From Eledone cirrhosa (taxonomy: Eukaryota), in the NCBI GenBank assembly GCA_964016885.1, contig CAXHJY010001767.1:22057-86056 (forward strand): DNA of 64,000 bases, written 5' to 3'. A model generated the notes under the pieces. That model searched no databases and was not told where the DNA came from. It saw only the letters and a list, made by a program, of their open reading frames with translations. A program made the position numbers and the translations under genes. Shown piece after piece: positions 5,161-5,661 of the stretch (positions are counted from its first letter, which is position 1; the number at the start of each line of letters is the position of its first letter).

Positions 5161-5332
5161 TATATATATGTATATATATACAGATATATATATATATATA
5201 TATAATGTAGGAGGTGAGTTTTATTGTAGTACAATAAAGCAATGCAGATATCGGATAAGAAGCACTCTACAGTTTGTAGGACTGGAGTATACATAATATA
5301 AGATCAAAAGATGGTTAAAGGAGTTCCATGTA

Positions 5333-5400
5333 TTTTATTATGCGCATTTCAAAAACAAACATCATCATGCAATAATATTTGTTGTTTTCATCAGATAAAA
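5333..5400 (-). ncRNA. Type I hammerhead ribozyme motif
   Basis: Minus strand: ttttat CTGATGA [long AU/GU stem II] GAAA tgcgca TA ataaaa; palindromic stem III ATGCGCAT. Confidence 0.8.
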
Positions 5401-5554
5401 CAGGAGAACATGATATTAAGGCTAAAAAACACTTGTGGATAGTGCAGTTTTAAATCAACATATGTTGATAACATGATATGTTGATAACATGATATGTTGA
5501 TTTAAAACTGCACTATCCACAAGTGTTTTTTAGCCTTCATATCATGTTCTCCTG

Positions 5555-5621
5555 TTTTATCTGATGAAAACACAAATATTATTGCATGATGATGTTTGTT
5601 TTTGAAATGCGCATAATAAAA
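5555..5621 (+). ncRNA. Type I hammerhead ribozyme motif
   Basis: ttttat CTGATGA aaacacaaatattatt-gcat-gatgatgtttgttttt GAAA tgcgca TA ataaaa. Confidence 0.8.
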
Positions 5622-5661
5622 TACATGGAACTCCTTTAACCATCTTTTGATCTTATATTAC

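Follow-up and report, generated by a model that had tools for sequence, protein, structure and literature searches.

The locus at positions 5205-5660 raises the question whether a fold-back with two outward-facing hammerhead motifs is a mobile element in its own right or the product of an insertion of something else. We analysed it within a window of 64,000 nucleotides of Eledone cirrhosa DNA (assembly GCA_964016885.1, contig CAXHJY010001767.1), a repeat-rich stretch of animal type with a GC content of 33.7%. A preliminary description of the same DNA had presented the locus as a fold-back element with twin intact hammerheads and links to a Penelope relic elsewhere in the window.

Structure of the fold-back and its flanks

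The fold-back consists of two arms, which we interpret as 5'-truncated copies of a pseudo-LTR. The left arm (5294-5461) has its sense on the minus strand, while the right arm (5494-5660) lies on the plus strand and stops at a short 3' end. Aligned with each other, the arms differ in only two of 168 columns, namely by one substitution at 5417 and a 1-nt indel at 5382. With near-identical arms and motifs on opposite strands, the locus is indeed the fold-back with outward-facing twin hammerheads that had been described before. Only the left copy carries an extension of about 90 bp (5205-5293, minus strand), which is missing from the right arm and is homologous to 37285-37396. Since, in sense orientation (minus strand), this segment comes after the left hammerhead, it is a 3' tail, and the "leader" of the preliminary description is this tail seen from the antisense side.

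The arms meet at an inversion junction (5454-5493, without assigned strand), in which a 16-bp palindrome centred at 5461/5462 is followed by two templated 16-nt reiterations. The centre proper (5462-5493, 32 bp) is formed by two copies of the unit ATGTTGATAACATGAT, and the 10-mer AACATGATAT within it is a copy of 5407-5416. Because the unit partly repeats 5407-5416, the centre fits microhomology jumps, in line with the template jumping suggested earlier.

The entire fold-back sits inside (TA)n, with TA microsatellites on both sides. A direct-repeat comparison of the flanks recovered a 68-nt interrupted-TA repeat at 5130-5197 and 5662-5729 (both plus strand), the core of which is found nowhere in the window except at 5157 and 5689. 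As a local null for this match inside a microsatellite, 290 cuts were placed in the arrays of the window, of which 10 gave a comparable match; the repeat may represent a long target-site duplication flanking the fold-back. The fold-back is a real, young and nearly unmutated insertion.

Hammerhead motifs

Both arms contain the type I core (CUGANGA, GAAA, NUH, stems I and II). Descriptor scans place the left hammerhead at 5331-5402 on the minus strand, with a predicted cut between 5339 and 5338, and the right one at 5553-5623 on the plus strand, with a predicted cut after 5615. The two share an 8-bp stem I, CUGAUGA, a long AU/GU stem II, GAAA, TGCGCA and the cleavage triplet AUA. In the predicted fold, stem II forms a helix of 12 AU/GU base pairs capped by a 4-nt loop, and stem III is the palindrome ATGCGCAT, located at 5340-5347 and 5607-5614. 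A strict descriptor, which demands a stem I of at least 8 bp and a perfect palindrome, matches the window three times and none of 50 shuffled versions.

The preliminary description called both hammerheads intact. This holds for the cores, which are complete and matched by the strict descriptor, but not for the core-adjacent pair, which is A-U in both arms in place of G10.1-C11.1, a pair described as highly conserved in hammerheads (PMC4209133). Nor did Rfam recognise them: the right arm gave ten matches at E<=10, none to a hammerhead family, and no hammerhead was among the 150 of 374 matches listed for the whole window. Folding z-scores of the isolated arms are likewise weak (-0.41 to -1.49). 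Variants of the left hammerhead that reach at least 5% in the public sequencing run X1 comprise three substitutions and one deletion, all outside the core; as we read them, one falls into loop II and two preserve pairing. This variation fits a conserved ribozyme fold, for which four sites are weak evidence.

RNA folding and dimerisation

The palindromic stem III had been considered suited to dimeric folding, and this is supported by the computed energies of -10.5 kcal/mol for the intermolecular duplex and +4.7 kcal/mol for the monomer hairpin. The two ribozymes, however, are located on opposite strands, so that no single RNA carries both and the copies cannot pair in cis; dimers via stem III would be possible only between separate sense RNAs. 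For a read-through RNA of the locus, in silico folding predicts that the core is base-paired (probability of being unpaired <=0.001) within a hairpin of about -280 to -288 kcal/mol, and that adopting the hammerhead fold instead would require about 98 kcal/mol. In these models the hairpin buries the ribozyme core of the read-through RNA. The hammerheads, which are predicted ribozymes, are passengers at the fold-back locus. The opposite orientation of the copies and the sequestered core speak against a special twin-ribozyme element and for an inverted PLE insertion of the usual type.

The family in public sequencing runs

Public contigs were aligned to 5205-5505. In run X1 (3864 contigs), which possibly stems from another species or individual than the window (word share 0.68) and whose depths are not copy numbers, the summed depth amounts to 0.4-1.0 M across the extension and to 1.3-2.3 M at 5293-5358. 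In addition, 32 contigs of this run have a loose end before 5288, where their consensus includes TA repeat. The depth step and the loose ends indicate a second, shorter 3' end of the family near the stop of the right arm, and X1 thus displays two family-wide 3' ends, a long (tailed) and a short one. Both alleles of the indel at 5382 are common in this run, with the deletion in 160,250 of 266,590 depth.

Towards the junction, the depth in X1 drops from 872k at 5447-5457 to 2.7k at 5469-5479 and to about 10 beyond. Even if all depth in the bin 5469-5479 fell on one base, it would equal about 3.5% of that at 5447-5457. This collapse past 5469 implies that the centre of the fold-back is not amplified. 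Run X4, the second organism aligned, holds five contigs of depth 2-10 that are near-identical to the element, and one X4 contig continues after 5464 with 204 unlike letters. The family is highly repeated and the centre is not shared, and the fold-back is therefore an insertion product and not a mobile unit. A MITE or foldback DNA transposon was rejected on the basis of the 90-bp asymmetry of the ends and the unamplified centre.

Words of the element occur in 20 of the 24 runs listed, which represent 15 studies and 16 organism labels and of which two were aligned; related hosts, trace DNA and transfer are all conceivable sources of this distribution. None of the runs listed with such words is an RNA run, and the RNA runs X21 and X24 yielded 0 reads, which has no bearing on expression. 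Pattern scans found no match in viral contigs and none in genome contigs. We regard 34 matches in metagenomes as chance, because they extend barely past the 18-nt seed and the longest covers 45 nt at 80%.

Neighbouring elements

Two further fold-backs border the locus, which we count as element 2. Element 1 (4520-5113) belongs to another hammerhead family, has a one-sided tail of 57 bp and bears a core change (CUGAAGG) in its right arm. A solo copy of the same family at 39262-39735 ends at the short end, and its first 16 bp are an inverted copy of the tip of the tail. Element 3 (5824-6053) combines a reiterated centre with a ~77-bp tail, and scans found no complete hammerhead in it. All three belong to different families, but share the layout of two arms and a one-sided tail. 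This recurrence in neighbours of other families, together with a solo copy that stops at the same short end, makes a product of PLE insertion the best reading of the fold-back.

Two alternatives can be judged from this comparison. We consider it very improbable that the fold-back is a mobile twin-ribozyme element (MITE-like or a hairpin RNA) that makes use of both hammerheads. The complete cores of both ribozymes, the occurrence of three fold-backs side by side and the possible target duplication around the whole unit would agree with it, but its centre should then be amplified with the arms, and reaches about 3.5% at most. Furthermore, the ends are asymmetric by 90 bp, the hairpin blocks the core, and the family of element 1 possesses an unfolded solo copy with the same short end. 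Even harder to credit is an assembly or library artefact in the form of a chimeric fold-back read. The window does contain, around a centre at 22822, one perfect palindrome whose arms measure 414 bp, as an artefact might produce. The arms of element 2, in contrast, differ at two sites and enclose a complex centre, its short end is a family-wide end in independent contigs, and three families share the layout.

Several other structured or repetitive regions were observed in the window. A hammerhead family of ~320 bp with a palindromic stem III is present at 35983-36610, 40613-40955 and 43683-44005; its copy at 35983 combines an inverted copy, a partial tandem and a full unit, and looks retrozyme-like. 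An isolated, canonical-looking type I hammerhead lies at 25273-25318, and two adjacent short hairpins at 34825-34954. The palindrome centred at 22822 (22409-23236) is mostly TA microsatellite and may be an assembly artefact; a further inverted copy is found near 23402-23459. A diverged, MITE-like-looking element with inverted arms of about 240 bp occupies 57873-58543, and a tandem array with a period of 50 bp extends over 61166-63674. Long frames of non-LTR retrotransposons, RT- or endonuclease-like and in some cases split by TA, are found at 6522-7955, 12864-14246, 16317-21379 and 46650-49445.

Relationship to the GIY-YIG relic

The resemblance of the tail to a segment just upstream of a GIY-YIG relic had been taken as a hint at a Penelope origin. 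In a local alignment, the tail and 37303-37374 are 69.7% identical over 76 columns with a BLAST E of 0.29. A chance match, as this value might suggest, was overturned by shuffling and by end-anchored alignment. Under blastn-like scoring the similarity is borderline (1 of 3000 pair shuffles, 10 of 200 whole-window shuffles); under lenient scoring it was reached in none of the 3000 pair shuffles or the 200 whole-window shuffles, and an extended query against the relic's end gave 0 of 2000 and 0 of 100. An alignment anchored at the flanks has 75 matches in 126 columns (0 of 3000 shuffles) and a score of 99, compared with a shuffle mean of -43 and a best value of -7 among 71 other TA-adjacent ends. 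The resemblance is thus significant in the lenient and the end-anchored comparison, and judged by these alignments the homology between tail and relic is real but distant.

The same figures (75 of 126 columns globally, 69.7% identity locally) place element and relic in different families. Hence the proposed Penelope origin retains its link through the homology to the relic's 5' end, but the relic is a related family at 60-70% identity and not the source. As far as sequence similarity can tell, it is a sister family of the element and not its parent.

The 5' end of the relic is formed by the decayed tail-like segment (37285-37396, minus strand), a putative inverted copy according to the end-anchored alignment (75/126 columns, 0/3000 shuffles). 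It is followed by a decayed ORF fragment with linker and GIY-YIG region (37420-38140, approximate bounds, plus strand), which was delimited from homologues, tblastn coverage and the linker motif. A hammerhead at 39162-39225 (plus strand), in which each strand of stem I agrees with the element in 7 of 8 letters, is the third match of the strict descriptor and sits 1 kb downstream of the ORF in sense orientation. The ORF fragment has 2688 homologues at E<=0.001, and tblastn with the best 150 of these gave no alignment start before 37420. Its linker reads CNCRIKSNC (CxCx5C). Among 21 full-length homologues, RW[KR] is found in 19, DK[TS] in all 21 and CxCx5-6C in 15. The CxCx5C linker together with RWK and DKT is diagnostic for the Hydra clade, which inserts into (TA)n and carries hammerheads (PMC8557442). 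Owing to its linker and the RWK/DKT motifs of its homologues, we assign the relic to the Hydra-clade PLEs. Pfam gave no match for the relic and none for three full-length homologues, and a search for longer homologues found none among 1717 candidates.

In PLEs the pseudo-LTR or tail usually overlaps the start of the ORF (PMC3846280). A profile built from 21 Hydra-type N-termini gave less than 0 bits for the frames of the element, so that the tail was not recognised as coding for an ORF N-terminus, and only 0.2 bits for the relic frame, at the expected place. Likewise, 37285-37396 was not recognised when scored as the coding segment expected there (-0.6 bits), and the idea that 37285-37420 codes for the segment before the NIIW motif found no support. 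At the other end, the similarity between an arm of the element and the relic's 3' region (38800-39250) is not significant (548 of 2000 shuffles), and falls to 18 of 2000 only with a window narrowed post hoc and cheap gaps. When the relic's 5' segment was reverse-complemented, no counterpart emerged in the 3' region (1183 of 2000). Although these last two results speak against it, the relic probably represents an earlier insertion by a sister family that shares the layout of inverted tail, truncated body, hammerhead and TA, as its order of segments suggests. A second Hydra-type region at 40967-41457 shows an endonuclease C-terminal fragment, then a compact hammerhead (41377-41416) and then (TA)n.

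Origin of the insertion

The fold-back is very probably a severely 5'-truncated, recent insertion of a hammerhead-bearing PLE family in two head-to-head copies. By way of the sister family, this family would most likely belong to the Hydra clade or be derived from it as a non-coding element. A PLE protein provided in trans would nick the (TA)n microsatellite, and reverse transcription would cover only the last 170-260 nt of the RNA, i.e., pseudo-LTR and hammerhead. Following two microhomology jumps, two copies would then be linked 5'-to-5' through a short palindrome, one of them ending at the family's long 3' end (the tail) and the other at the short 3' end. The enzymology, the clade of the mobilising protein and any activity of the ribozymes are inferred.

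We lean slightly towards a single template for both copies. The first cDNA would fold back at the palindrome, stutter twice, copy itself and undergo resolution at the AT-rich boundary of the tail. Self-priming of this kind, there on an antisense template, has been proposed for palindromes at junctions (PMC3846280). Such a course would agree with the near-identity of the arms, with the palindrome, of which the single X4 contig crossing the junction shows the left half and 3 further nt to belong to the family, and with the position of the short end in a TA-like stretch with microhomology to the target. However, the arms differ at 5382, where both alleles are common in X1, and a single template would require recurrent mutation at this site.

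The allele difference would be readily explained by two templates, which we nevertheless consider rather unlikely. In this "twin" target-primed reverse transcription from two different RNAs, the ends of a staggered break would each be primed by one subunit of a PLE dimer with two internal RT start sites, and the short cDNAs would be joined head-to-head. A PLE protein studied in vitro proved able to cut and extend both strands and to initiate at two tail-bounding sites, and it is predicted to form a dimer (PMC11167929). The presence of exactly one tailed end in each of elements 1, 2 and 3 and the possible long target duplication (10/290) are likewise consistent with two templates. Yet 5382 is a single informative site, may be an indel hotspot and is scored in a run that may not represent the window's species, and visual inspection of elements 1 and 3 revealed no such duplication. 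Furthermore, we did not find a twin-priming model for PLEs in print, which is not proof of its absence. If true, twin priming would account at once for the head-to-head inversion and for the tail on one side only.

A further alternative is compatible with this insertion mechanism and differs only in the source RNA. Instead of the terminus of a coding PLE, the family may be a non-autonomous unit of retrozyme type that Hydra PLEs mobilise, a reading that we hold tentatively and rate a little below even. The element lacks a coding signal and very many X1 contigs contain the family, while two other hammerhead families in the window are non-coding units of about 320 and 470 bp, one of them partly tandem; moreover, according to a 2026 preprint, animal retrozymes originate from PLE pseudo-LTRs (bioRxiv 10.64898/2026.07.22.740005). 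The fold-back locus itself, in contrast, contains no head-to-tail repeat, and in the related relic an ORF separates the homologous tail from a similar hammerhead.

Comparison with known elements

Inverted 5'-truncated copies and a one-sided tail of 30-40 bp are characteristic of PLEs (Craig et al. 2021, PMC8557442). Palindromes at the junction of inverted pseudo-LTRs in head-to-head arrangement were described by Arkhipova et al. 2013 (PMC3846280), and pairs of minimal hammerheads on opposite strands, spaced by 100-700 bp, were reported by Cervera and de la Pena 2014 (PMC4209133). The insertion pattern with head-to-head pseudo-LTRs, one-sided tail and opposite-strand hammerheads is therefore already published, and the locus is a clean example of it and not a new kind of element. 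We found no description of the family itself in the portions of these sources available to us; the Hydra consensus files of PMC8557442 could contain it.

The element resembles insertions of EN+ PLEs in its head-to-head pseudo-LTRs, junction palindrome, tail at one end, microsatellite target and hammerhead near the 3' end. It differs in the lack of an ORF between the repeats, in a tail of about 90 bp compared with the published 30-40 bp, in the two 16-nt reiterations at the junction, and in a possible duplication of up to 68 nt compared with 8-10 bp. With the Hydra clade the element shares the location in (TA)n and the hammerhead, while the relic has the CxCx5C linker and its homologues RWK and DKT (PMC8557442); the element, however, is itself non-coding and matches the end of the relic at an identity of only 60-70%, so that its assignment to the clade goes by way of a sister family.

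The ribozymes parallel the minimal or atypical type I hammerheads of PLEs in their long helix II, their small, palindromic and dimer-suited helix III and their occurrence as opposite-strand pairs (PMC4209133), but are distinct in an 8-bp helix I, a 12-bp AU/GU core of helix II and A-U at the position of G10.1-C11.1. Animal non-LTR retrozymes are likewise short, non-coding, highly repeated and equipped with a type I hammerhead (PMC7229834; bioRxiv 10.64898/2026.07.22.740005). In contrast to their tandem head-to-tail arrangement, the element is head-to-head, and it is known from DNA alone.

Implications

As an object the locus is ordinary, being one more truncated insertion of the PLE type. Its value lies in the young and near-unmutated record of how PLE inverted repeats are formed, a process listed as unresolved by Craig et al. 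2021 (PMC8557442). Judging from the predicted folding, hairpin insertions of this type would yield long double-stranded RNA when read through. As three adjacent families share the same layout, the genome offers many natural test cases. In particular, the arms carry different common alleles of the family, which makes the question of the template countable in arm pairs, and in so abundant a family the counting of alleles in such pairs can decide between one and two templates.
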